Positions 1 through 30,918 of a stretch of 64,000 nucleotides of DNA are shown piece by piece; position 1 is the stretch's first letter; the number at the start of each line of letters is the position of its first letter. Made by a program: the position numbers and the translations under genes. The stretch is from Syntrophothermus sp. (GTDB lineage Bacteria > Bacillota > UBA5301 > JAMCQP01): assembly GCA_050260975.1 (NCBI GenBank), contig JBLNCV010000166.1, positions 830-64,829 of the forward strand. The letters are read 5' to 3'. Below the pieces are notes generated by a model. That model was not told the origin of the DNA, did not search any database, and was given only the letters and a program-made list of their open reading frames with translations.

Positions 1-555
1 CTTGAGGAACACATGCCCTTCCCGGGTAAAGGCGAAGACAACCTCGTCCGCGTCCAGCAAGATCAATTTGCCCAGGCGCTCGGCGGGAATCTTCCGGATC
101 CGGTGAACTGCTTGCGGATGCGCGGCCAAAGACCCGAGCAGACGCTCCAGGCTCTGGGCGATCCGCTGCTCGCCACCGGCGGCCTCCATGGCCTGCTCCA
201 ACCGCGCCACCGTCTTGGCCAGCCGCTCCGCCTCAAAAGGTTTCAAAACGTAATCCACCGCGTTGATTTCAAAGGCCTTAATGGCGAATTCATCGTAAGC
301 CGTGGCAAAAACAATGAGCGGCAACCGCCCATCCTCGCCCTCGTCAATCAGGCGCTGGGCGCATTCAAAGCCGCTCATGCCCGCCATCTGGACATCCAAA
401 AACACCACATCGGGGTTCAGCCGCGGGATCTCCTCCAAGGCCTCAAAGCCGCTGTCGGCCTCGCCCACCACGCTGACTCCCAGTTGTTCCAAGAGAAAGC
501 GCAACTCGTTGCGAGCAGGGGGTTCATCATCAACAATCAACGCGCGAATCTTCAC
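1..555 (-). CDS. lytT: LytTR-family two-component response regulator; N-terminal receiver domain is visible and the C-terminus runs off the window edge
   Basis: The minus frame from GTG at 555 reads MKIRALIVDDEPPARNELRFLLEQLGVSVVGEADSGFEALEEIPRLNPDVVFLDVQMAGMSGFE...VDYVLKPF, a CheY-like receiver. A GTGA overlap couples it to the lytS stop at 552-554. It is absent from the ORF track because there is no stop inside the window. The plus-strand ORFs 13..648, 302..778, 649..978 and 666..1169 are antisense artefacts. Confidence 0.7.
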   Translation of the reverse strand, partial: MKIRALIVDDEPPARNELRFLLEQLGVSVVGEADSGFEALEEIPRLNPDVVFLDVQMAGMSGFECAQRLIDEGEDGRLPLIVFATAYDEFAIKAFEINAVDYVLKPFEAERLAKTVARLEQAMEAAGGEQRIAQSLERLLGSLAAHPQAVHRIRKIPAERLGKLILLDADEVVFAFTREGHVFLK

Positions 556-2240
556 CGGGCCACCCTCTCCTGCCTTCGAATCACAAATTCAACGGTCGTC
601 CCCCGCCCGGATTCACTTTCCATCCTTAGCCCGGCGCTCTGGCCGTAGATGCTCTTCAGCCGTTCGTGGACATTGCTCAGGCCGACACCCGTGGTCCAAT
701 CCAACCCGGAAGAGTCCGGCGCCAAAAGCCGGGCCTTCTTCTCCGGCGGGATCCCGATTCCGTCGTCGTGCACCATGATCCGCACCCCGCGCTTGACCTT
801 CGCCACCCGGATGGTCACCGTCCCGCCCTCCCGTTTGGGCAGGAGCCCGTGTTTGACCGCGTTTTCCACCAGGGGTTGCAGGGTCAGAACGGGCAGTTCA
901 AGAGTGGCCAGCGCGGGGTCGATCTCCTCTCTCACCCGCAACTTCTCGCCGAAGCGCGCCTGCTCGATAGCCAGGTAGGCCTTGACATGGTTCAATTCCT
1001 CCGCCAGGGTGACGAAATCCCCGGCCTGGTGCAGGTTGCGCCGGAAGAAATCGCCCAGGTAGATCAACAGGCGCCTGGCGGTCTCCGGTTCCGTGCGCAC
1101 ATAAGAGACAATGGTATTCAAGGCGTTAAAAAGGAAGTGCGGGTTGATCTGGGCCCGGAGGGCCTTTAACTCGGCTTTGGTCACCAACTCCGCCTGCCGC
1201 TGCAACTCCGCCAGTTCAAACTGCGTGGCGAACAGCTGGGCAATGCCGGCCACAAACTCTTGATCCAGGGAAGTTATGGTGTTTTCGTGGCTCCTGTAAA
1301 ATTTTAGCGCCCCGATAATCTCCTCCCTGCAACGCAAGGGCACGATGATCGCGGCCCCCAGCTGGCACCCGGCCGCCTTGCAGCCAATCTCTGCACGCGT
1401 TCCCGCCACCACGGTCTGGCCTTCCGAGAGCACCCGCCTGGTCGCCGCGGTTAAGATCGGCTCTCCGGGACGATGGTGATCGCCGCCTACGCCAACGTGC
1501 GCCAGAATCCGATCCCGGTTTGTCATGGCCACCGCGGCGGCGTCGGTGGCTTCATAGATGATCCTGGCCGCGGCGGCGGCCGATTCAAAGTCCAGGCCCT
1601 TTCTCAGGTGCGGCAGAGTTTTGTTGGCAATCTCCAGCACTTTTTGGGTCTGAAGGGCGCCAATCCGGTCTTCGCGCTCTTTGAGAGCCCGGACGGTGGC
1701 CATGAAGACCGCCACCCCGAGAGAATTGGCCACGATCATCGGTATGCCGATCACCTGCACCAGTTCCCAGGCCTGGCTAAACGGCCTGGCCAGCGCCAGG
1801 ATAATCACCATTTGCATGGTTTCGGCCACCAGGCCTGTCCAAAAGCCCACCGCCCAGGTGGTGGTCTTGCCGCGCATGGCTCTGTGCACCAGCCCGGCAA
1901 AGAGCCCCTCCACCGTAGTGGACACGCCGCAAGCCAGAGCCGTAAACCCGCCCATCAGATACCGATGCGCGCCCCCCAGCAGCCCGGCCGCCAACCCGAC
2001 CCAGGGTCCTCCCAGAAGGCCGGCCACTGCCGCCCCGACCACCCTGGAGTTGGCCAGGGCTCCTTTGACCGGAATGCCCACATAGGTGCCGGCCACGGCT
2101 AGAAGACCAAACAGAACCGCCAGGAGGAACTTCTCCCGGAAGGAGCCGGAACGCAAAAGCACATGGCGAAAAGGTTTGAGCTTGCTGAAAAAGTAAGCAA
2201 AGGCGGCAATCACGCTCAGCCTTTCCAGAAGATCGATCAA
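552..2240 (-). CDS. lytS: LytS-type sensor histidine kinase (5TM LytS/YehU sensor, GAF, His-kinase, HATPase)
   Basis: 562 aa. It has an N-terminal polytopic membrane region, a GAF-like middle section, an H-box (INPHFLFNALNTI) and a C-terminal ATPase with DDGIGIP and G-x-G motifs, as in LytS-family kinases. Confidence 0.85.
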   Translation of the reverse strand: MIDLLERLSVIAAFAYFFSKLKPFRHVLLRSGSFREKFLLAVLFGLLAVAGTYVGIPVKGALANSRVVGAAVAGLLGGPWVGLAAGLLGGAHRYLMGGFTALACGVSTTVEGLFAGLVHRAMRGKTTTWAVGFWTGLVAETMQMVIILALARPFSQAWELVQVIGIPMIVANSLGVAVFMATVRALKEREDRIGALQTQKVLEIANKTLPHLRKGLDFESAAAAARIIYEATDAAAVAMTNRDRILAHVGVGGDHHRPGEPILTAATRRVLSEGQTVVAGTRAEIGCKAAGCQLGAAIIVPLRCREEIIGALKFYRSHENTITSLDQEFVAGIAQLFATQFELAELQRQAELVTKAELKALRAQINPHFLFNALNTIVSYVRTEPETARRLLIYLGDFFRRNLHQAGDFVTLAEELNHVKAYLAIEQARFGEKLRVREEIDPALATLELPVLTLQPLVENAVKHGLLPKREGGTVTIRVAKVKRGVRIMVHDDGIGIPPEKKARLLAPDSSGLDWTTGVGLSNVHERLKSIYGQSAGLRMESESGRGTTVEFVIRRQERVAR

Positions 2241-2404
2241 AAGGTTTATGTTTACGACGGCGCTATCCGTTTGGCTTCCCTCCCGTGCCGGTTCTCCGCT
2301 TTTCAGGGAAACAAGATTCTTATTTTATTTTACTCCTTTTTGCCCGCGAAATCCAGCCCTTGTCCAACCGAAAGCCCTGCCTGTTTCTACCGGATCCATT
2401 CTTC

Positions 2405-5400
2405 CTATTTCTGCCGGATCCGTCCTTCGAGCCCGCCCTCCGCCTCTTTATGGGATTCAAACCAGCGCGCCAGCGCGTCGGCAGCTCTGACGAAGGTATC
2501 CGTCCGGTTCCGCGCGCCACTGAAGGCCCCGATCCGCGGGTCAAGAGCAAGCGTCGCCGGCATCGCCACCCGGTAGATTCTCCCGGGTGCTAACGGCTTT
2601 CCGCCGGATCGCACCTCCAATACCTGTTTTCCTTTCCCGGTTCCGGCAACCAAAAGCTCGATTCCAGAGATCTGGACAACCTCCTGGCGCGAACGGACCA
2701 TCTGGGCCACGGCCTGTTCCAATCTGGCGCCGGAGATCTCCATAAGAATCAGATGCTCCCGCGCCGGCAAGAGCGCGAAAAGATCCCCTAATGTGACCGG
2801 GCCCGCCGGGAGATCTCCTTTCAGTCCTTCCCCGGGCTGCAAAGCGACCTCCGCGCCGGTGGCCTCCCGATAAGCGTCAGTGACTACGTTGCCGAGGTTG
2901 GATTCCCCCTGCGGGTCCCGCTCTAATGGCACGGCGCTCGTCCCCACAATCTGCGCCAGTCTCACCCTGGTGCGGAGCGCATACCGTCCGGCCAGATCCA
3001 CCATCGCCGCATCCGGGTCCGTCCTGCCCGGCGCCGCCTCCACCAGCTGCATCCCGTGCCAGCCCACCTTCCCGGCATCTTTGTCCCAGAGGAGGCGGGT
3101 CCGGGCCAGCGAACTGCCTCCCTGGCCTGGCGCCATCACCGGCACTCTGTGGGCCACGGCGGTATAGCCACCCGGCGCGGTTCTACCGGATGGCGCAGCC
3201 ACCACCAGATCCACCCCCCGCAGATCTTTTGCCAGATCTTCGACTTTTCCGGGAACATGCGCGATTACCACCACGATCTCCGCGCCGGCCTTGCGCAGTT
3301 TGGCGGCTTCGGCATTCACCGCCGGGACAACCGGCCGGAAATCGATCGCGGAGAGAATCTCCGGCCGGATTGCTTCCGGGGCGGATGGCAAGGTGGCGCC
3401 GACCAGGCCGATCTTTCGCCCGCCGGCAGTCACCATCTTGGTGGGCGCCGCCCACTTCACCGGGAGGCCGGTAGCCCGTTCGTAAAGATTGGCCGCCAGG
3501 AAGCTGAACCTGGCCCGGACCGCCCTCGCCTCAAAGACAGCCTCCCCCCATTCCAGATCGTCTTCCCCGATGGCTGCAGCGGTGAACCCAAGCGTATTCA
3601 GCGCCTCCACCATCGCCTCCCCCTGGAAAAGGTCGTTGCCGGCGTCCCCGGCCAGCAGATCGCCGGCGTCAACCAGGATAGTCCCCCTGGGATTCTGCTC
3701 CCGGATCTCGGTAATATTGCCGCCCAAAAGCGGCAATCCGCCCAGCTCCCTCCCGCCGGACCACGGGTACCTGCGGGCCGCCAGGCCGCCACGCAAGCCG
3801 CCGGTGGCCACCACATCAATGACCGTGTAACTGCCCGTCCTGACCCGCCCATCGACCGCCGCGCCCACCTTCCTCTGGGCGGTTGTCCATTCCCTGAGCA
3901 CTTGGGCTAAAGAACGGTGGTAACGGATCAGATACCGCACCGGGTCTCCCTGGCGTTCACTCCGGGCAAGCAAGCTGCGTAACGCCGCAATCCGGTAATG
4001 CGCCAGGGGATCCAGCAACCTGCCGCCGATCTCCACGGCGACCACCCGGTTGCCTGCGCTTCTATGGAAATCAAAATGAAGATTCATCCCGGAGAACTGC
4101 GGAAAGGCCGGTGTTCCCGGCAACTGGGACCCATCCAGCTCCGCAGGCTTTCCGGACCCCGGCGGCGTCCCGGGATCCACCGGCCGCGAAGGATATCCGG
4201 CCACTCCGCGCTCCAGCAGCTCTTTAACCACAGCCCCGCGAACCTCCGCGACCACGACCTCCCCACCGCCGGGAACCAGTCTTTGCAGATCCGCCGGGAT
4301 GATGACCCCTCTGGCCAGGCCCGCCCGGAGATCCCGCGCCTCAAGCATCGCGATATCCGCGCCAGTATAAGACCGAACCGCGTCCGCGGCGAAATTGCCG
4401 AGCACCGTCTCTCCGCTGGACACCTGAGCCGGTTCATATACCATCTCCACCAGCGCTTCCCCAAGCTTTTCGGGCGCCGGGCGTCCGGTTTGCACTTGAG
4501 GTGTTTGGGGCGTCCGAGACGCTTGAGGCGCCTGGGATGCCGGAGGCGCCTGGGGCAAATACCGGCCCTGGACCTCCGTAACCCCGGTTTCGCCAATGGT
4601 AAGCTCTACTCTTGCATAAGAAGTTTTTTCCCCGCCCACCCACATCAGAAAACTGTTGCGGGTTTGCTCCACAACCGGGGCGTTCCGGTCGGGCCTTGCG
4701 TCTCGGGGAGTTTTCCCGCTGTATTGCCGGGAATAGACGCCCGGCGTCTGGGTTCTCCCCAACACCAGATCGATTCCCGCAACCTGCCGGACCATCGCGC
4801 GATCCGCTTCAGGACCCAGATCCGATAATACCACCACCAGATCCGCCGCCCCCGCCACCTCGGGGATCAATTTGGCGGCGGCTTGCACCGGGTCTGTTAC
4901 AGCCAACCCTGGGTAAGGACTGCGCAAGCCCTCCAGAAGCTGGGGCCCGGCTGCAAGATCCACCTGAGGCGCCAGAAGGCCGATTACTCCCACCCGCAGA
5001 GTTCCAACCGGGATAATTATGTAGGATTGGGCAAAATCCGGCTTCCTTTCCTGGCGCCCTTCGGCCAGCAGGTTGGCGGCCAGCAGAGGATCTTCCTTTC
5101 CCTCCGCCCACTGGCGCAATCTTCCTTCACCCGAAATCAGATCGGCTTCCCCTGGAACAACTACGGTAACCACCGTCGCGTTGTCCGCCCAAAACTCGAG
5201 TTGTCCACCGGGGCCAACCGTGTAGCGCAGCACGACTTTCCCAGGCGTCCGCCGCCGGACGGCCAGCTCCCCCGCAGGAGGAGCCTTGCGACTGGAGCCG
5301 TTTGTGGAGGCCAGGTCCTGCTTGATGGGTTGTTCAGCGACCTGTTCCGCCCCCTGGGATACGGAGGCGTTTTTCCCCGCGCGGAAACCGTCGCGTCCGC

Positions 5401-5518
5401 CAGGCAAACCGCATCCCGCCAGGAGAAGCAGCCCCAAAATCCCCACCGCCAGACGCCAGCCCGCCGGCAAGGTCCCGGCCGCCTTCCCCCATTCATGACC
5501 ACTAAGCCATCCCTGCAT
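2405..5518 (-). CDS. Large lipoprotein built from two tandem 5'-nucleotidase-like modules (metallophosphatase-like plus 5'-nucleotidase C-terminal domain), with catalytic motifs degenerate
   Basis: The ORF track gives 2405..5710. The signal peptide MPAGWRLAVGILGLLLLAGC with an LAGC lipobox argues for a start near 5470-5518. There are two copies of the 5'-nucleotidase C-terminal motif (LGNFAADAVRSYTGADIAML and LGNVVTDAYREATGAEVAL). Two metallophosphatase-like regions occur where the usual GNHEFD is replaced by GEDDLEWG and GGHxH is missing. A Pro/Gln-rich linker (PQAPPASQAPQASRTPQTPQ) separates parts of the protein. Confidence 0.6.
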   Translation of the reverse strand: MQGWLSGHEWGKAAGTLPAGWRLAVGILGLLLLAGCGLPGGRDGFRAGKNASVSQGAEQVAEQPIKQDLASTNGSSRKAPPAGELAVRRRTPGKVVLRYTVGPGGQLEFWADNATVVTVVVPGEADLISGEGRLRQWAEGKEDPLLAANLLAEGRQERKPDFAQSYIIIPVGTLRVGVIGLLAPQVDLAAGPQLLEGLRSPYPGLAVTDPVQAAAKLIPEVAGAADLVVVLSDLGPEADRAMVRQVAGIDLVLGRTQTPGVYSRQYSGKTPRDARPDRNAPVVEQTRNSFLMWVGGEKTSYARVELTIGETGVTEVQGRYLPQAPPASQAPQASRTPQTPQVQTGRPAPEKLGEALVEMVYEPAQVSSGETVLGNFAADAVRSYTGADIAMLEARDLRAGLARGVIIPADLQRLVPGGGEVVVAEVRGAVVKELLERGVAGYPSRPVDPGTPPGSGKPAELDGSQLPGTPAFPQFSGMNLHFDFHRSAGNRVVAVEIGGRLLDPLAHYRIAALRSLLARSERQGDPVRYLIRYHRSLAQVLREWTTAQRKVGAAVDGRVRTGSYTVIDVVATGGLRGGLAARRYPWSGGRELGGLPLLGGNITEIREQNPRGTILVDAGDLLAGDAGNDLFQGEAMVEALNTLGFTAAAIGEDDLEWGEAVFEARAVRARFSFLAANLYERATGLPVKWAAPTKMVTAGGRKIGLVGATLPSAPEAIRPEILSAIDFRPVVPAVNAEAAKLRKAGAEIVVVIAHVPGKVEDLAKDLRGVDLVVAAPSGRTAPGGYTAVAHRVPVMAPGQGGSSLARTRLLWDKDAGKVGWHGMQLVEAAPGRTDPDAAMVDLAGRYALRTRVRLAQIVGTSAVPLERDPQGESNLGNVVTDAYREATGAEVALQPGEGLKGDLPAGPVTLGDLFALLPAREHLILMEISGARLEQAVAQMVRSRQEVVQISGIELLVAGTGKGKQVLEVRSGGKPLAPGRIYRVAMPATLALDPRIGAFSGARNRTDTFVRAADALARWFESHKEAEGGLEGRIRQK

Positions 5519-5809
5519 CCTTGCTTCATGCCATCTCCCCATCCACACAAACCCCTTGTCGAAGAAAATTTGCAGGCTCCAGATCGTCCCACACGGTATT
5601 TCTACAGCCCCGTCGCCCTTCCTGCTGGTTTTCCGCCTCTCTGAAAAGTTCCGGCTGCGCATTGGCGCGTAACTGGGAGGCTTTGGCGCAACAATTGGCA
5701 TCTCTTCCATTTTATAACTGTTTTCGGCCCAAAACGGTTCTTTCTGATCTTAGGGAATATCGCTTTCAAGTCGATACTCGAAATAAGCGACTCAAAGGAG
5801 GAGGTCAAG

Positions 5810-6043
5810 ATGAATTTCCCAAATATTCCCTGGCAGGAGTGCCTGAGAAGATTCCTTCTGTGGCTTGCCCCGTTGGAGCCCGTCTCTCTTTTTGAAGAAC
5901 GCCCTAAAAAGGTGCGGGATCTACCGCCGATGGTCGGTCCCGGCGAATGGCAGACTCTTTCGGAGGAGGAACGGTGGAAGATATTCCGGGAGGATATCGA
6001 GAGAAGGGCCCGGCTGGACAGCCCATTTCGCCGGCATTATTAG
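5810..6043 (+). CDS. Hypothetical small Trp-rich protein (77 aa)
   Basis: There is a strong RBS (AAAGGAGGAGG) 6 nt upstream of the ATG. It is the only plus-strand ORF in a gap between minus-strand genes. I recognise no family. Confidence 0.4.
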   Translation: MNFPNIPWQECLRRFLLWLAPLEPVSLFEERPKKVRDLPPMVGPGEWQTLSEEERWKIFREDIERRARLDSPFRRHY

Positions 6044-6073: not shown

Positions 6074-7075
6074 CTAGTTTTCTGGCGGGGGCACTCGCCT
6101 GGCCCCCAGAAAACGGGCGGCATAATACGGGTCGTCCAGGCGGCTGACGATCACGCCTCGCCGGGACGAAGCATGTATGAATCTTCCCCGGCCCAGGTAG
6201 AGGCCCACATGTGATGGGCCGGGCTGGTAGGTGGTAAAGAAGACCAGATCCCCCCGGGTCAAGACATCTTTCGGAACTACCTGGGTCGCGGCGTACTGGG
6301 GCCCAGTCTCACGCGGCAAGGCGATGCCGTTCATGGCAAAGACCGTGTAGATCAGTCCCGAACAGTCGAATCCCTGCCGGCTGCGGCCCCCCCACCGGTA
6401 CGGCGCGCCGAGGAAGCGCTGGGCAGTGGCGACCAGATTATCGATGAAAGCGAAACGACCTTCTCTCCCGGCGAGGCTCATCTTCGAGGGGATCTCCCCG
6501 ACATCCAGCAGCTCCCGGTAGATCCAGCCCACCTCTCCCCCCGGGAGCGCTACTTTGATCCAGTCGCCGACCTCTCCGGCTATCCCGAGACGGGTATTCA
6601 AAAATACGTTGGTAAGTGGCGGGCTGAGCTTGGACGCCTCTGTGCGAACGACCGCCACATCCACTCTAACCGTGGCCATCTGCGTAAACCGGGACCAGTA
6701 CTCCGCCGGTGTGATGGCCGCCACCTCTTCCTTTTTGATCCAGCCAGCGGTATCGCCCTCCCCTGGCGCCAACACCAGCCACCAGCCTTCTTTTTCGGTA
6801 ACCATCGCCACCACGGTGTTCATCAGAAGCCGGATCGCTTCTTCCGCGCCTTCCGACGGGCGGATATGGACCATGGCCGCATTGACCTTCACCAGACCCT
6901 GCTGTGGCCCGGCTTGCTGCGGCCAGCCCGTTGACGATTCTTGCGCGTATGCCTGATCTGTTCCGCCGATCACGCCAGCGACACCGGCCTCCCCGGCCAA
7001 AAGCCCGGCCGCAAAAGTCAGGGCCAGTACAGTCCGAAAGAGCCCCGGAACCGCCCTTACCTTTGCCATTTGCAA
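6074..7075 (-). CDS. Secreted NlpC/P60 (C40) cell-wall peptidase with N-terminal SH3b-like repeats
   Basis: Signal peptide, then a C-terminal catalytic region FIDNLVATAQRFLGAPYRWGGRSRQGFDCSGLIYTVF...HVGLYLG with the Cys and His of the NlpC/P60 fold. Confidence 0.8.
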   Translation of the reverse strand: MQMAKVRAVPGLFRTVLALTFAAGLLAGEAGVAGVIGGTDQAYAQESSTGWPQQAGPQQGLVKVNAAMVHIRPSEGAEEAIRLLMNTVVAMVTEKEGWWLVLAPGEGDTAGWIKKEEVAAITPAEYWSRFTQMATVRVDVAVVRTEASKLSPPLTNVFLNTRLGIAGEVGDWIKVALPGGEVGWIYRELLDVGEIPSKMSLAGREGRFAFIDNLVATAQRFLGAPYRWGGRSRQGFDCSGLIYTVFAMNGIALPRETGPQYAATQVVPKDVLTRGDLVFFTTYQPGPSHVGLYLGRGRFIHASSRRGVIVSRLDDPYYAARFLGARRVPPPEN

Positions 7076-7814
7076 AGGCTCCTTTCCAGAAGTTGAATCA
7101 TCAGGTATAAAACCAGGCCAAGGAGGCTGAGCGCCACTACCGACGCAAACATCAACTCGTAATTGGCCCTGCCCCAGGCGTCCATGATCAGGTAGCCCAG
7201 CCCCGAATTGGTAGCAAAGGATTCGGCGAAGAACAGGACCGCAATGGCGGTTCCCACACTGATCCGCAGCGCGGTGAAGATCTTTGGCAAAGCAAATGGA
7301 AAGAGCACATGCCGGTAGATCTGACGTTCGCGCGCCCCCAGCGACCGCACGCTGTAGATTGCCGCCGCCGGCAAGGCCCGGACCGCGTCCCGGGTGGTGA
7401 CCAGGATCTGATAAAAGACCGTCAGGGTCACCAGAAAGATCCGGGAAGTGTCGCTCAACCCGAGCAATGTGAGCACAATGGGCAAAAGGACGATCTTGGG
7501 GATCGGATAGGTCAGGTAGAGAAACGGCGCCACCCAGGCATCCACTCTGGGATTCCGCCCCAGGTACAGGCCGAGCGGGACAGCACCGGCGAGCGAAACC
7601 ACCAGGCTCACGAGCACCCGCCGGGTACTGGCCAGGAAGTGCAAGAGCAACCCCTCCTGTTGGTTGGCAACCATCTCGTGTAAAACCGCCCAGGGCCCGG
7701 GCAGAGTCGGGGTCTGCAAGAGAAGGGAGAGCAACTCCCAGGCCATGAGCGCCACGACCAGTGTGGCCGCCATGGCCGTTACCTGCAATATATTAAGATC
7801 CGGCCCCGCTTGTT

Positions 7815-7818
<4 letters not shown>
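7057..7818 (-). CDS. ABC transporter permease (NitT/TauT, SsuC-like family)
   Basis: Six-TM binding-protein-dependent transport permease with an EAA-like loop (ESFATNSGLGYLI). Confidence 0.8.
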
Positions 7819-8588
<770 letters not shown>

Positions 8589-8626
8589 TACCAAACACTC
8601 CAAATCCGTTTCCACTCTGTACCCAT

Positions 8627-9646
8627 TTATTTGGCGGCGGCAAATTGGCCGTCTGTGAGGTCGCCATACGCATACGACCTGTCGATGAGCTTCTTTTCCA
8701 ACATCCACTTCACGACCCGGTCGAAATCCTGCTTCTGCGGCAACTTCGGCATCGGGTAATGAGGCAACGGATAAGTCTCCTTGATCTCCTCCGGTACTCT
8801 GGCCTTGTCGATCAAGAGTTCCCGGTAGACATCAGGGCGCGCGTTGATGGCTGACACCGCCCGGCGGTAGGCCGCGTACATCTTCTGGATCTCCGCCCGC
8901 TTCCCGCTGATGCTTCGCTTCTGGAAGGCCAATACCACCTGCGACAGGTTGCCGGCGGGGCCCGGAGCGGTATCGCTTACAATCACCCTGGCGCCTCTGG
9001 CTTCCGCCAGCGCCGCCAGCGGGTCGGGCAAAGTGGCCGCCTGCAACTTTCCGTTGAGCAGCATGTCCAGCCGGATCGGGATCTTGGGAATCTCCACCTT
9101 GACTATCTCCTGAGCCTTAAGACCGTTGGCTGAAAGCAACTGATCCGTCACATACTCTATGATGGAATTGTTGGAGATCCCGATAGGAACGTTTTTAAGG
9201 TCCGCGACCGTTTGAATCTTAGCCCCCGGAGCGGCGAGAATGGCAAACCGCCCCTCCTGCGGCACCTCCCCCAGGGCCACCGAGGTAATCGCCACCGGTA
9301 TCCCGCTCTTTTCGAGAAAGATGACCGCCAAAAGATCGGTGATTACACCGTCAATCTGGCCCGCTCTGATGGCGGTATCGCGTTCGATGGCGCTGTTGAA
9401 CGGCACAAGTTCCACGGCCACCCCTTCCGCGGCAAAGAACCCTTCCTTTTCCGCCACATAGAACGGGAGGTTGTCCTCGATGGGAAGCACCCCGATCTTT
9501 ACAACTTCACCTTTGGCCGACGCAGGTATAGACGGCGCCACCGCCGCAAAAAGCGCCGCCACGAGAACAAACGCAACGGTCAAGGCCACCGCCGCGGCCC
9601 CGTTCACACGGCTGCGCCGCCCGGCCTCACAGAATACTTCCGACAT
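8627..9646 (-). CDS. ABC transporter substrate-binding protein, NMT1/THI5/SsuA-like, membrane-anchored
   Basis: N-terminal TM/signal segment followed by KIGVLPIEDNLPFYVAEKEGFFAAEGVAVELVPFNSAIERDTAIRAGQIDG, typical of the SsuA/NMT1 fold. Start placed at ATG 9646, with GGAGGAG 6 nt upstream. Confidence 0.7.
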   Translation of the reverse strand: MSEVFCEAGRRSRVNGAAAVALTVAFVLVAALFAAVAPSIPASAKGEVVKIGVLPIEDNLPFYVAEKEGFFAAEGVAVELVPFNSAIERDTAIRAGQIDGVITDLLAVIFLEKSGIPVAITSVALGEVPQEGRFAILAAPGAKIQTVADLKNVPIGISNNSIIEYVTDQLLSANGLKAQEIVKVEIPKIPIRLDMLLNGKLQAATLPDPLAALAEARGARVIVSDTAPGPAGNLSQVVLAFQKRSISGKRAEIQKMYAAYRRAVSAINARPDVYRELLIDKARVPEEIKETYPLPHYPMPKLPQKQDFDRVVKWMLEKKLIDRSYAYGDLTDGQFAAAK

Positions 9647-9682
9647 CGCAACTCCTCCATTCAATCAATTATTATCGCGTAG

Positions 9683-10570
9683 TTATAGTGCCGCCCAGGT
9701 AAACAAGAGGTACCCGACGCTCAACACCCCATTTACCGTAAAAAAAGCGGTATTTATCCTTCCAAGGTCATCCGGCGCAATGATGGCATGTTCGTAGATC
9801 AAGAGCCCCGCCGCCACCATGAGCCCGATCCAGTAAACCGGCCCGAGCCGCATTGCCGCCCCGACCAGGGCAAAGAGCACGATGGTCAGGAGATGAAAGG
9901 CCAGCGACCAGAAGAGGGCCCTCTTCACCCCGAATCTGGCCGGGATGGACTTAAGCCCCTCGGTCTGATCAAAGGCCACGTCCTGTAAGGCGTAGATCAC
10001 ATCAAATCCGGCCACCCAGAAGGTTACCGCCAGCCCCAAAACCACCACCTGCCAGTCAATCCGGCCGGTTACCGCCAGCCACGCCCCGATGGGCGCCAAC
10101 CCCAGCGCCCACCCCAAAAAAAGGTGGCAGGCCCAGGTAAACCGCTTGGTGTAGGAATAAAAGACCAGGAAAAAGAGGGCCACCGGGCTCAAAAAAAGCG
10201 CGAGCCGGTTCAACTGGGCCGCGGAGACCAAAAGCAACGCCACCGCCAGCATAAAGTAGAGCCAGACCTCTTTTTTGGCCAACAACCGCTGGGGAAGCGC
10301 CCGGCCTCTGGTACGCGGGTTCTTGGCGTCCAATTCCGCGTCCGCCAGCCGGTTGAAAGCCATGGCGGCGGTTCGCGCCCCGACCATGGCTAAAGTAATC
10401 CAGAAGATCTGCCAGGGTGTCGCCCGCCCCCCGGTCGCCAGAAGCGCCCCAGCATAAGCAAAGGGCAGGGCGAAGATGGTATGTTCAAATTTGATCATTT
10501 CCAGAAAGATCCACAACTTGCGGATCCCGCTCACTCTGCTCATTCCGCTTCTTCCACCCGCTTCAGCCAT
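9683..10570 (-). CDS. UbiA-family aromatic prenyltransferase (4-hydroxybenzoate polyprenyltransferase / MqnP-like)
   Basis: Polytopic membrane protein with the UbiA N-terminus (KLWIFLEMIKFEHTIFALPFAYAG) and Asp-rich motifs (NRLADAELD, DVIYALQD). The true start may be the internal Met near 10543. Confidence 0.8.
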   Translation of the reverse strand: MAEAGGRSGMSRVSGIRKLWIFLEMIKFEHTIFALPFAYAGALLATGGRATPWQIFWITLAMVGARTAAMAFNRLADAELDAKNPRTRGRALPQRLLAKKEVWLYFMLAVALLLVSAAQLNRLALFLSPVALFFLVFYSYTKRFTWACHLFLGWALGLAPIGAWLAVTGRIDWQVVVLGLAVTFWVAGFDVIYALQDVAFDQTEGLKSIPARFGVKRALFWSLAFHLLTIVLFALVGAAMRLGPVYWIGLMVAAGLLIYEHAIIAPDDLGRINTAFFTVNGVLSVGYLLFTWAAL

Positions 10571-10625
10571 TCCTTGTTCACCTCCGCCGGTTCACCGCTT
10601 TCGACCCTCCATGGTCTTCGCGGCA

Positions 10626-12116
10626 TCAGAACGTCCCTGGTCTGGGGGCCCGGTCCAGCTTTATGCCGTACTGGGACCATTTTCGGTCCACCAGTTCCTT
10701 GATCTCGGGGCTCATCCGGATCTCGTCCGGCCACTCCCTCTGGAACCCCTCCGACGGCCATTTGATGGTGGCGTCAATCCCCATCTTGGAACCGTACCTG
10801 GGCAACCGGGAAGCATGATCCAGCACGTCGATGGGGCCCTTGACAAAGGCGATGTCGCGCTCCGGATCAATGTTGTTGAAGACCTTCCAGATTACCTCCG
10901 ACGTGTCGTGGACATTTACACTGGCATCCACGACGACGATGATCTTGGTGGTCATCATCTGCGGCAGCCCCCAGAGGGCGTGCATGACCTTCTGAGCATG
11001 TCCGGGGTAGCTCTTGCGGATGGAGACGATGGCGCAGTTGTGGAAGACCCCCTCGATGGGCAGGTCCACATCCACAATCTCCGGAAGCATCAGCTTCATC
11101 AAAGGAAGAAAGATCCGCTCGGTGGCCTTTCCCAGATAGCAGTCCTCCATCGGCGGCTTTCCCACGATCGTGGCCGGGTAGATTGGGTTGCGGCGGTGGG
11201 TGATGCAGGTGATGTGAAAGACCGGGTACTCATCGGCCAGGGAATAATACCCGGTATGATCCCCGAACGGCCCCTCGGTCCGCAACTCCTCGGCATCCAC
11301 GTAGCCTTCCAGCACGATCTCCGCACCGGCCGGCACCTCCAGATCCACCGTCCGGCATTTCACCAGCTCCACCGGGGCCTTGCGCAAAAAGCCCGCGAAA
11401 AGCAGTTCGTCCACCTCTTTCGGCAGAGGAGCGGTAGCTGCGTAGATTGTAGCCGGATCCGCGCCGATGGCCACCGCCACCTCCATGCGCTTCCCGAGGC
11501 GTTTGGTCTTGCGGAAGTTCTCCGCGCCGTCCTTGTGAATATGCCAGTGCATTCCGGTAGTTAACCCGTCGTAGACCTGGAGGCGGTACATCCCCACGTT
11601 ACGGCGGCCGGTCTCCGGATCTCTGGTGAAGACCAGCGGTAAGGTGATAAAGCGTCCCCCGTCGCCGGGCCAGCTTTTGAGAATCGGAAAACGCTCTAAA
11701 GTGGCGCCCTCTTGCGGCATGAGCACCACTTCCTGGCACGCCCCGCGCCCCACCACCTTTGGGAAAAAGCTGGCCAGCTCGGCCAGTTTCGGGAGCGCCT
11801 GCAGCTTGCCGAACAGCCCGGCCTGGCCCACCTCGGAAGAAAGTTCGATGAGGCCGGTGATCTCTTTGCCGATCTCGTCGAGGTTCTCCACCTCCAAAGC
11901 CATCTCCATGCGGCGAAAAGACCCGAAGGCGTTCATCAACACCGGAACGTCAAAGCCCTGTACATTTTCAAATAAAAGAGCCGGGCCCTCGGCCTTGGAA
12001 ACTCGATCGGTAACCTCGGTGATCTCCAGATCCCTGTCCACCGGCGCCTTGACCCGCACCAACAACCCTTCGCGGTCCAACCGCGCCATGAATTCTCTCA
12101 GATCCTGATACGCCAT
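10626..12116 (-). CDS. UbiD-family decarboxylase (3-polyprenyl-4-hydroxybenzoate decarboxylase / MqnL-like)
   Basis: Aligns along its length with UbiD proteins (MAYQDLREFMARLDREGLLVRVKAPVDRDLEITEV...). Start placed at ATG 12116, with AAGGGAAGGGG upstream. Confidence 0.85.
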   Translation of the reverse strand: MAYQDLREFMARLDREGLLVRVKAPVDRDLEITEVTDRVSKAEGPALLFENVQGFDVPVLMNAFGSFRRMEMALEVENLDEIGKEITGLIELSSEVGQAGLFGKLQALPKLAELASFFPKVVGRGACQEVVLMPQEGATLERFPILKSWPGDGGRFITLPLVFTRDPETGRRNVGMYRLQVYDGLTTGMHWHIHKDGAENFRKTKRLGKRMEVAVAIGADPATIYAATAPLPKEVDELLFAGFLRKAPVELVKCRTVDLEVPAGAEIVLEGYVDAEELRTEGPFGDHTGYYSLADEYPVFHITCITHRRNPIYPATIVGKPPMEDCYLGKATERIFLPLMKLMLPEIVDVDLPIEGVFHNCAIVSIRKSYPGHAQKVMHALWGLPQMMTTKIIVVVDASVNVHDTSEVIWKVFNNIDPERDIAFVKGPIDVLDHASRLPRYGSKMGIDATIKWPSEGFQREWPDEIRMSPEIKELVDRKWSQYGIKLDRAPRPGTF

Positions 12117-12330
12117 AAAAACCCCTTCCCTTTGTGCCCATCCATATTTATTTGGCGGTCTGTCCCGCAAATCCTTCCCGGAGCGGAATTTTCTTCGGAA
12201 AGAGCTTGCCCGGCCCGTCGGATCCCATTTTTTGGCCGATTTTCGGCCACAGTCATTTTGACAAGTTGGACAACGTAGAATATTCTATACTTGTATTAAC
12301 TTGTACCACAATATTTGAGGGGGCGAGAGA

Positions 12331-18689: not shown

Positions 18690-18765
18690 TGGAGCCGGCG
18701 ATGGGACTCGAACCCGCAACCTGCTGATTACGATTCAGCTGCTCTACCAATTGAGCTACACCGGC
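18690..18765 (-). tRNA. tRNA-Thr (anticodon CGU)
   Basis: 76-nt cloverleaf on the minus strand: GCCGGTG acceptor, GCTC/GAGC D-stem, anticodon loop AUCGUAA, TTCGAGT T-loop, encoded CCA. One C-A mismatch in the T-stem. Confidence 0.75.
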
Positions 18766-18781
18766 ATCTCCGGCAATAAAA

Positions 18782-18856
18782 TGGAGCGGATGACGGGATT
18801 CGAACCCGCGACCCTCGGCTTGGGAAGCCAATGCTCTACCGCTGAGCCACATCCGC
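18782..18856 (-). tRNA. tRNA-Gly (anticodon CCC)
   Basis: 75-nt cloverleaf: GCGGATG acceptor, anticodon loop UUCCCAA, T-loop TTCGAAT, discriminator U, encoded CCA. Confidence 0.8.
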
Positions 18857-30659: not shown

Positions 30660-30736
30660 TGGTGGTCGCACTTGGACTCGAACCAAGGACCTCTACGATG
30701 TGAGCGTAGCGCTCTAACCGGCTGAGCTATGCGACC
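30660..30736 (-). tRNA. tRNA-Val (anticodon CAC)
   Basis: 77-nt cloverleaf: GGTCGCA acceptor, anticodon arm CTACG-CTCACAT-CGTAG, T-arm CTTGG-TTCGAGT-CCAAG, discriminator A, encoded CCA. Confidence 0.75.
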
Positions 30737-30761
30737 ATAAATTTATAAATTGCTATTAACC

Positions 30762-30837
30762 TGGCACCCCCAAGGGGATTCGAACCCCTGTTGCCGCCGT
30801 GAAAGGGCGATGTCCTAGGCCTCTAGACGATGGGGGC
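30762..30837 (-). tRNA. tRNA-Glu (anticodon UUC)
   Basis: GCCCCCATCGTCTAGAGGCCTAGGACATCGCCCTTTCACGGCGG... anticodon loop CUUUCAC, discriminator G, encoded CCA. Confidence 0.8.
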
Positions 30838-30842
30838 GTAAC

Positions 30843-30918
30843 TGGTGAGCCATGGAGGACTCGAACCTCCGACACCCTGATTAAAAGTCAGGTGCTCTAC
30901 CGCCTGAGCTAATGGCCC
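30843..30918 (-). tRNA. tRNA-Lys (anticodon UUU)
   Basis: GGGCCATTAGCTCAGGCGGTAGAGCACCTGACTTTTAATCAGG... anticodon loop CUUUUAA, T-loop TTCGAGT, discriminator A, encoded CCA. Confidence 0.8.

Follow-up and report, generated by a model that had tools for sequence, protein, structure and literature searches.

A predicted lipoprotein of two tandem, degenerate 5'-nucleotidase-like modules encoded beside lytS and lytT in an uncultured member of the Bacillota

Three genes lie one after another on the minus strand at the start of the window, the 64,000-nucleotide stretch of Syntrophothermus sp. DNA that was analyzed. Read in the direction of transcription, the first encodes the protein that concerns us here, a large lipoprotein built from two units that resemble 5'-nucleotidases. 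The second (552–2240) encodes a LytS-type sensor histidine kinase in which Pfam recognizes 5TM-5TMR_LYT, GAF, His_kinase and HATPase_c domains. The third (1–555), identified by its translation and a Pfam Response_reg match, is the 5' part of a lytT-type response regulator gene, containing the receiver domain; it extends beyond the window, and its GTG start overlaps the stop codon of lytS (GTGA). An earlier note on this DNA had placed a lytS/lytT pair directly downstream on the same strand, and that is the arrangement found.

The pseudo-nucleotidase gene is real: a single intact reading frame on the minus strand (as are all the features below), with its stop codon at 2405–2407. Three codons could start it, ATG 5542, ATG 5518 and TTG 5470. 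Gene callers choose TTG 5470, giving 1021 aa (P0001; the residue numbering used here), and NCBI chooses ATG 5542, giving 1045 aa (MGE5577169.1). The earlier note began the protein at 5518, for about 1000 aa; that codon is one of the candidates, but comparison with the orthologues, in which an AAGGGG ribosome-binding site upstream of 5542 is conserved, favors ATG 5542 instead. The mature protein is identical whichever of the three is used.

The start region and signal peptide (5411–5542), read directly from the sequence, have the features of a lipoprotein signal: a positive n-region, a hydrophobic h-region and a lipobox of the form [LVI][ASTVI][GAS]C. The lipobox, LLLAGC, follows the hydrophobic stretch at residues 15–20 (5411–5428, with the hydrophobic core), and Cys20 is the predicted site of lipidation. 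This cysteine is preceded by WRLAVGILGLLLLAG in the window protein and by LFLLAG in the orthologues, so that the lipobox proposed earlier is present, and is conserved in both P0002 and P0003, as judged by pattern. By these signs the window protein is predicted to be a membrane-anchored lipoprotein. Between the lipid anchor and the first module lies a tether of about 55 residues (5243–5410, residues 21–76) that is predicted to be disordered, with pLDDT of 28–45, and is poorly conserved (27–32% identity to orthologues, dN/dS 0.4–0.5).

Beyond this flexible tether, the mature protein consists of two tandem UshA-type units, each a metallophosphatase-like N-domain followed by a 5_nucleotid_C C-domain, as the earlier note had described. 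Pfam matches 5_nucleotid_C twice (161.6 bits), the best stretch being in the C-domain of module 2, but finds no Metallophos match in the protein even at E≤1. The two-domain fold is kept in both modules nonetheless; it is predicted with confidence, and both units align collinearly with active tandem relatives (MAFFT). Neither module, then, is unrelated to the 5'-nucleotidases.

The two modules are not equally complete. The N-domain of module 1 (4559–5242, residues 77–304) is truncated and lacks the first strand, the one that bears motif I. It is joined to its C-domain (3833–4471, residues 334–546; 5_nucleotid_C fold) by the Pro/Gln-rich linker noticed previously, at residues 305–333 (4472–4558; pLDDT <50), which stands where active 5'-nucleotidases have their inter-domain hinge helix. 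Neither the missing strand nor the position of the linker had been remarked on. The linker differs in length among the orthologues, being longer in P0003, and a Pro/Gly-rich insertion within the C-domain (4097–4189) occurs in the window protein only. Module 2 has a complete metallophosphatase-like N-domain with a degenerate site (3026–3832, residues 547–815), established by phmmer alignment to 2z1a and 3ivd, mapping onto UshA, pLDDT (>90) and Foldseek, and a hinge helix that is still present (residues 821–838). The helix and the C-domain of module 2 together span 2408–3025 (residues 816–1021), as defined by Pfam, phmmer to 2z1a and residue mapping.

The condition of the active sites was read from three independent alignments: a phmmer alignment to 2z1a and 3ivd, a MAFFT alignment that takes in UshA and the active tandem relatives, and HMM-anchored alignments of the domains, all referred to the residue numbering of Escherichia coli UshA. 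Of the eight positions scored, module 1 keeps none and module 2 keeps two, D604 and H738. Where UshA has the dimetal ligands D41, H43, D84, N116, H217, H252 and Q/H254, the residues are G, P, S, E, D, T and T in module 1 and G, R, D, E, H, P and G in module 2, the HMM-anchored alignment agreeing for module 2. In module 1, GNHEF has become GEADL (5129–5155), Asp stands in for the motif IV His (VVLSDLG, 4814–4834) and GHSH has become GRTQ (4739–4762). In module 2, DxH has become GLR (3785–3808), GNHEFD has become GEDDLEWG (3545–3568) and GGHxH has become AAPSG (3182–3205), the earlier note having pointed to GEDDLEWG and to the absence of GGHxH; the Asp of the GD motif (D604, 3647–3673) and the motif IV His (H738, 3248–3271) are retained. 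The catalytic dyad, His117–Asp120 in UshA, is lost as well, its positions being occupied by A109/I112 in module 1 and by D637/E640 in module 2.

Because neither module keeps the dimetal site, and the dyad is gone too, the protein looks like a pseudo-enzyme rather than a hydrolase. The Pfam search and inspection of metal ligands that the earlier note had proposed as a check—two 5_nucleotid_C matches, no Metallophos match, ligands largely lost rather than all intact—come out on the side of its view, and the conclusion that both modules are dead for the family's phosphoesterase chemistry is well supported by the alignments.

Module 2 might, in principle, have kept or acquired some other activity, using a single-metal site made up of D604, E636, D/H637, E640 and H738 to act upon a non-nucleotide phosphoester or a different substrate altogether. 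Several of its replacements are acidic (E636, D637 and E640), metal site 2 has side chains capable of binding metal (D, E or H) at three of its four positions, and P0002 and P0003 have His/Glu at the dyad, that is, they keep the equivalent of the catalytic His117. The N-domain of module 2 is also the best conserved domain in the protein (72–74% identity, dN/dS 0.21). Both motif I ligands of metal site 1 and both motif V histidines are missing, however, the catalytic His is an Asp in the window protein, Metallophos is not matched at all and the substrate site of the C-domain has been lost too. We regard catalysis of this kind as very improbable.

In the mechanism of the family, a pair of aromatic side chains from the C-domain sandwiches the base (PMC10454023); in CpdB the pair is Tyr440 and Tyr544 (PMC9958556). 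The earlier note judged the substrate-binding C-domains of the window protein to be well conserved. The motif on which it relied, LGNxxxDAxR, is indeed present in both (VLGNFAADAVR in module 1, 4373–4405; NLGNVVTDAYR in module 2, 2867–2899), but UshA itself lacks this motif, the corresponding position reading NMGRLILAAQMDR, and for that reason we take LGNxxxDAxR to be a motif of the fold that lies outside the substrate site. The residues that do form the site are replaced in both modules: F429 by G401 and A903, N431 by G403 and E905, F498 by S499 and T973 (module 1 and module 2, respectively), and R375 by Pro in both. Module 1 has lost the aromatic clamp at LVPGGGEV (4256–4279); in module 2, LPFGN has become LPARE (2750–2773), NDFxxGGDG has become PATLALDPRIG (2528–2563) and GGIR has become EGLK (2810–2833). 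Only the equivalent of R410 is kept, as R382 in module 1 and K884 in module 2. The pattern holds for all three orthologues, in both modules of which the clamp positions are Gly/Ala and Ser/Thr/Ala, and the neighboring Asn is Gly/Glu.

These replacements bear on the earlier proposal of a surface-anchored pseudo-enzyme that can no longer catalyze but whose C-domains continue to bind nucleotides or nucleosides; such a protein would act as a receptor or scavenger. Both C-domains are clear members of 5_nucleotid_C, and they retain both the LGNxxxDAxR helix and the R410 equivalent, all of which suits such a role. But with the clamp pair and N431 exchanged for small or acidic residues in every orthologue, R375 exchanged for Pro, and the one conspicuous motif belonging to the fold instead of the site, nucleotide binding is unsupported, and we consider it quite improbable.

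The family to which the protein belongs is tiny. Among some 15 billion proteins there are three known members, the window protein, P0002 and P0003, all from closely related uncultured Bacillota whose UbiD proteins are 92–93% identical. In an exhaustive phmmer search of 1.84 billion representatives, P0002 scores 1308 bits and the next match 262 bits. A scan of genome contigs for further members returned only the contig of P0003, and a scan of metagenome contigs returned none. When module 1 alone was the query of a word-indexed search, two weak matches came back, both to active enzymes; the protein's own cluster was not among them, and this search is therefore uninformative.

Small as it is, the family has been maintained. 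The reading frame is intact in three lineages, at 1019–1045 codons, despite divergence to 64–65% identity and a dS of about 0.95, and dN/dS is 0.20–0.39 in each of the four folded domains. Because it is low in all four, each domain is under purifying selection. Constraint is nevertheless relaxed in comparison with the cytoplasmic neighbors, dN/dS being 2–3 times theirs and similar to that of a neighboring gene for an extracytoplasmic NlpC/P60 protein. The gene is in fact the fastest-evolving one in its neighborhood (64–65% identity, against 86–93% for the neighbors). This, together with low-complexity insertions particular to single lineages, variation at the C-terminal end and the truncation of the first domain, is what might be expected of a relic, a tandem nucleotidase gene decaying with no function left. 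A frame that stays open over such distances, domains evolving at about the rate of the NlpC/P60 gene, a conserved lipobox and a confidently predicted fold all speak against decay, and we think it highly unlikely.

What remains, and what we consider reasonably likely, is that the window protein is a dead tandem nucleotidase lipoprotein that serves as a folded, non-catalytic scaffold or binding protein, probably co-transcribed with lytS–lytT. Such a protein would be unable to perform the bind–rotate–hydrolyze cycle of UshA and CpdB and would lack the canonical mode of nucleotide binding; it would be kept, instead, for its fold, held off the membrane at the cell surface by its flexible tether.

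Proteins of similar build are known. The window protein shares its two-domain fold with the UshA/ecto-5'-nucleotidase family (1ush; 2z1a from Thermus thermophilus; human CD73), from which it differs in having the dimetal ligands, dyad, clamp, N431 and R375 replaced, in a first module that lacks both the motif I strand and the hinge helix, and in being tandem and lipid-anchored. Closer in organization are YfkN of Bacillus subtilis (PRK09419), a trifunctional nucleotide phosphoesterase, and the uncharacterized proteins P0021, P0034 and P0058, of 1000–1200 aa, in which a single exported chain of about 1000 aa likewise carries two units. Tandem phosphoesterases align collinearly over 85% of the length of the window protein; in the active ones both modules have the full set of nine site residues, as those of the window protein do not, and YfkN is anchored by sortase (PMC3222306) rather than by a lipobox. 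We considered whether module 1 descends from a CpdB-type unit, as in the CpdB plus UshA arrangement of YfkN, and rejected this: the UshA-type HMM scores 73.8 bits against 48.5 for the CpdB-type, and BLASTP matches module 1 best to the first module of P0058, which is of the UshA type (E=2.5e-31). Module 1 is not clearly CpdB-like, although with its clamp residues lost its type cannot be read directly.

Dead second modules, a feature that the earlier note did not mention, recur among the tandem relatives. P0038, P0092, P0095, P0129, P0177 and P0188 combine one with an active first module, and in P0054 both modules are impaired. Metal ligands and aromatic clamp are both lost from these second modules, as they are in the window protein, and the resemblance can be close: P0038 has GELRG and GPDDASWS, and no GHxH, where the window protein has GGLRG and GEDDLEWG. 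Because such modules recur, a non-catalytic role for the fold is not unique to the window protein. These relatives, none of them characterized, are only 23–28% identical to it and have different genomic contexts; except for P0054, their first modules are fully intact, and they are presumably still enzymes. Pseudo-enzymes with a metallophosphatase fold are already known in Plasmodium GAP50 (3tgh) and DNA polymerase alpha subunit B, but these are eukaryotic, lack both 5_nucleotid_C and the tandem arrangement, and are akin to the window protein at the level of the superfamily only.

If the preferred reading is correct, what might the scaffold serve? Our most specific suggestion is that the LytS-type sensor, which in orthologous loci precedes a CstA-family gene, is modulated by the scaffold or receives a signal that the scaffold presents. 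The gene adjoins lytS in all three genomes, and terminator scans of the interval between them (2241–2404) predict none in any of the three; part of this interval is homologous to the DNA that codes, in the orthologues, for a longer C-terminal tail. The lytS genes of L001 and L002 are 86% identical to that of the window. In L002 the lytT orthologue encodes Response_reg and LytTR domains and is followed by the CstA-family transporter gene, so that the order is pseudo-nucleotidase, LytS, LytT, CstA; the order in L001 is the same as far as the contig extends. The gaps in this conserved order are 62–165 bp. One copy of a possible shared LytTR-type operator, TGYAGAAAT, lies upstream of the window gene, and two tandem copies occur in L002, but the former is no more than chance would give (45 of 100 shuffles), the upstream region of cstA has only loose resemblances, and we rejected the candidate.

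From this order one could picture an accessory lipoprotein of LytS–LytT, one that is co-transcribed with the pair and senses some extracytoplasmic cue, or passes it on to the 5TM-LYT kinase, which in turn controls the CstA-family transporter; this is a narrower version of the explanation we prefer. A tethered extracytoplasmic protein with no enzymatic role would suit the part, and LytS-type kinases with CstA-family targets are known as pyruvate sensors, BtsS/BtsR/BtsT (PMC10653868, PMC7730263). But BtsS binds pyruvate directly, with no accessory protein (PMC10653868), and no LytS was seen in the contexts of other dead-module proteins (P0038 and P0054), which lie next to genes for ArsR-type regulators and for an OmpR-type two-component system. 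Little can be read into the position beside lytS, moreover, because the three genomes are close relatives and the whole region is syntenic, over more than 10 kb of unrelated genes. A functional link to lytS–lytT is only a hypothesis, and the accessory role seems to us rather unlikely. Improbable, too, is its boldest form, in which the former enzyme acts on its lipid tether as co-sensor of a BtsS-like kinase, capturing a non-nucleotide cue and gating LytS–LytT control of the transporter. Were that true, the LytS/LytTR class would gain its first described accessory protein, and a pseudo-5'-nucleotidase would have a function assigned to it for the first time.

The 5'-nucleotidases, UshA and CD73 among them, are a model for large domain rotation and include virulence and immune-modulating enzymes. 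Searches of the literature covered here for pseudo-5'-nucleotidases turned up no account of members that lack catalysis. The window protein shows that selection can preserve the complete two-domain unit, in two copies, after both its catalytic and its substrate sites have gone; this implies that the fold has a structural or binding role, and the tandem relatives with dead second modules point the same way. The immediate impact is modest, the family being known only from three uncultured Bacillota. There is also a caution for annotation, which domain names alone can mislead into calling such proteins nucleotidases or phosphodiesterases. The best NCBIfam match to the window protein is PRK09419.1-1 (NF006934), at 203.3 bits against a cut-off of 1646, and the other PRK09419 models score 73–78 bits against cut-offs of more than 2500.

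The best-supported reading of the window protein is that it is a lipid-anchored, tethered and non-catalytic protein, built from two dead modules of the UshA type, which selection has kept for a fold-dependent role, possibly one connected with the LytS–LytT system. This makes it a member of a well-known family, rather than a new kind of system, and leaves the earlier note largely right: its pseudo-enzyme reading is well supported, its nucleotide-binding reading is not.

The gene lies on the minus strand in a single unbroken ORF, from 5710 to the stop codon at 2405–2407. Three starts are candidates: TTG 5470, chosen by the metagenomic gene caller (P0001, the protein's own database entry; 1021 aa, 100% identical); ATG 5518, chosen in the earlier note; and ATG 5542, that of NCBI record MGE5577169.1 (1045 aa; 'MAG: 5'-nucleotidase C-terminal domain-containing protein [Syntrophothermus sp.]'), which lies 8–9 nt 3' of an AAGGGG block that recurs upstream of the orthologues' starts. 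The mature protein is identical whichever of these applies, and residues are counted here from TTG 5470. Residues 5–20 (WRLAVGILGLLLLAGC) form a hydrophobic run with a canonical lipobox at its end, kept as LFLLAGC in both orthologues (P0002 and P0003). The mature protein has 1002 residues (~106 kDa, pI 8.9), and its one Cys is the one predicted from the lipobox to be lipidated.

Pfam finds 5_nucleotid_C twice (161.6 bits) and no further domain, even at E≤1; in NCBIfam the YfkN-type tandem model PRK09419.1-1 scores highest, with 203 bits where the cut-off is 1646. When PDB sequences are searched with phmmer, residues ~575–1020 match complete 5'-nucleotidases end to end—2z1a (E=5e-24), then 3ivd, UshA and CD73—and a MAFFT alignment with tandem relatives of 1000–1070 aa is collinear across both halves. 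An AlphaFold2 model built on a 51-sequence alignment has pLDDT >90 for almost all of module 2 and 65–95 where module 1 is folded, with disordered segments at 1–72, 243–261, 310–331, 433–453 and 504–518, and the top Foldseek matches of the whole model in the PDB are all 5'-nucleotidases (E 2e-39 to 1e-32). Both halves are therefore two-domain 5'-nucleotidase folds. Module 1 lacks the motif I strand and begins at the motif II strand, preceded by a disordered tether, and its interdomain hinge helix is replaced by a disordered Pro/Gln-rich linker (residues 305–333), so the element needed for catalytic rotation is gone. Low-complexity insertions are lineage-specific among the three proteins: in the window protein only, the C-domain of module 1 carries a Pro/Gly-rich loop of 31 residues (4097–4189, minus strand), and the P/Q/T linker (4472–4558, minus strand) is longer in P0003 (QTPGIPQTPRTPQTPRIP; compare the gene at 10001–13120 in L002, one of the two orthologous loci).

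E. coli ushA was translated to permit literature numbering, and UshA was aligned, module by module, with the window protein, both orthologues and seven tandem relatives that are active. The UshA residues scored are those that we take, as established for the family and from the structures of Knöfel and Sträter, to be the metal ligands and the catalytic dyad. Active modules read D41, H43, D84, N116, H117, D/N120, H217, H252 and H/Q254. At the same nine positions module 1 has G P S E A I D T T, with nothing kept, and module 2 has G R D E D E H P G, with D604 and H738 the only survivors; here GNHEFD has become GEDDLEWG, and GGHxH, AAPSG. For module 2 this mapping agrees with that from a second, independent alignment of 320 domain hits, which is anchored on HMMs and covers only part of module 1. 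The orthologues have the same losses, except that the catalytic His is kept in their module 2 (GEHDLEWG). The term pseudo-enzyme is thus well supported.

The same cannot be said of the proposal that the protein binds nucleotides or nucleosides. In the general mechanism of the family, substrate binds first to the C-domain, where two aromatic residues sandwich its base, and the C-domain then swings through ~96 degrees to meet the metal site (PMC10454023); in CpdB the aromatic pair is Tyr440/Tyr544 (PMC9958556). Every active module in the alignments combines F/F or Y/Y at UshA positions 429 and 498 with Asn at 431. The corresponding residues (429/498/431) are G401/S499/G403 in module 1 and A903/T973/E905 in module 2, and G/S/E and G/A/E in the orthologues. 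Both modules have Pro where UshA has R375, and the R410 equivalent alone is kept (R382, K884). The independent phmmer alignment with 2z1a pairs the same residues: LPFGN with LPARE, and NNFIANGGDGF with MPATLALDPRIG. C-domain conservation had been read as a sign of substrate binding, but LGNxxxDAxR is the first helix of that domain and marks the fold, not the binding site, since UshA itself has NMGRLILAAQMDR there.

The gene is clearly under purifying selection. In codon alignments with the orthologous genes of L001 and L002, overall dN/dS is 0.25–0.26 between the window and either locus (dS ~0.95) and 0.34 between the two loci; it is 0.20–0.39 in each of the four folded domains and 0.4–0.5 in the tether, and in each of the three lineages the ORF remains unbroken over more than 1000 codons. 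Neighbouring genes (UbiD, UbiA, LytS, and the ABC permease and substrate-binding protein) give 0.07–0.16, and the NlpC/P60 hydrolase, likewise extracytoplasmic, 0.22–0.26. With 64–65% identity across genomes, against 86–93% for its neighbours, this is the fastest-evolving gene of the neighbourhood.

Module inactivation recurs in this tandem family. Among ~205 relatives examined, seven further tandem proteins of ~1000 aa from unrelated metagenomes (P0038, P0054, P0092, P0095, P0129, P0177 and P0188) have a second module without metal ligands and clamp; the first is intact in all but P0054, where it is impaired. Double inactivation was seen in the window clade alone, with P0054 as a partial case. 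The substitutions in P0038 (GELRG, GPDDASWS) are similar to those of the window protein. The genes for P0038 (L006, 3144–6209) and P0054 (L007, 823–3828) adjoin ArsR-type regulators, the former also an OmpR-type two-component system, and LytS was found beside neither. A literature search for module inactivation in tandem 5'-nucleotidases found no description of it.

A word-indexed search of 5.8 billion clusters returned only the protein itself, P0002 (62%) and P0003 (61%, a 'Firmicutes bacterium' MAG), and beyond these, PF00149-bearing proteins at ≤32% identity; exhaustive phmmer over 1.84 billion 50%-identity representatives fell from 1308 bits (P0002) to 262 for the next. The gene is present in one GTDB species representative, and in none of the JGI metagenome contigs scanned. 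The same word-indexed search with module 1 alone (3833–5242, minus strand) missed the self cluster and both orthologues, though these are in the database, possibly because the low-complexity linker had filled the list of candidates; its negatives are unreliable. With three uncultured carriers only, and no functional handle, the reach of the finding is modest. Both modules resemble UshA-type more than CpdB-type modules, scoring 73.8 versus 48.5 bits (module 1) and 223.6 versus 100.7 bits (module 2) against the respective HMMs, and module 1 finds its best BLASTP match in the first module, of UshA type, of the active 1009-aa tandem protein P0058.

In the window the gene order is NlpC/P60-SH3 hydrolase (6074–7075, minus strand), a small conserved 77-aa ORF (5810–6043, plus strand), the pseudo-nucleotidase, and downstream of it lytS (552–2240, minus strand) and lytT (from 555, minus strand, running off the window). 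The order is the same in L002, where a CstA-family transporter gene follows, and in L001 up to the contig end. In the three genomes 165, 62 and 93 bp separate the gene from lytS, with no terminator-like site found in any, and LytS-type kinases with CstA-family targets are known from the pyruvate sensor/transporter systems BtsS/BtsR/BtsT (PMC10653868, PMC7730263); it is therefore plausible that the gene is co-transcribed with lytS–lytT and functionally linked to them. Adjacency to lytS is itself weak evidence, because the three genomes are syntenic across the whole region.

The window's gap is in part homologous to the coding DNA of the orthologues' longer C-terminal tail: the stop falls ~75 nt earlier than theirs, and 2241–2404 (minus strand), past it, aligns with L001/L002 DNA coding the extra tail (...EGLDSSGKKG), which suggests a recent stop-codon shift. 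The lytS stop overlaps the lytT GTG start (GTGA, 552–555, minus strand), an arrangement that suggests translational coupling of kinase and regulator. The 77-aa ORF is transcribed divergently from the lipoprotein gene, has a strong GGAGGAGG ribosome-binding site and no Pfam match, and corresponds in position to an 81-aa gene of L001 and L002 (46–47% identity). Upstream of the lipoprotein gene, TGYAGAAAT occurs once in the window (5598–5606, minus strand) and twice in tandem, 11 bp apart, in L002 (9934–9953, plus strand), and nowhere else in either; it could be an operator, but its count in the window is not higher than chance. A conserved upstream block (7057–12170, minus strand), matching L001 and L002 in gene order, encodes a UbiD-like decarboxylase (10626–12170), a UbiA-like prenyltransferase (9683–10570) and the binding protein (8627–9664), ATPase (7815–8708) and permease (7057–7818) of an NMT1-type ABC transporter, all on the minus strand. 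Elsewhere in the window are two tRNA clusters, one of two tRNAs and one of three (18693–18856 and 30663–30918, both minus strand; Rfam tRNA, 56–71 bits).
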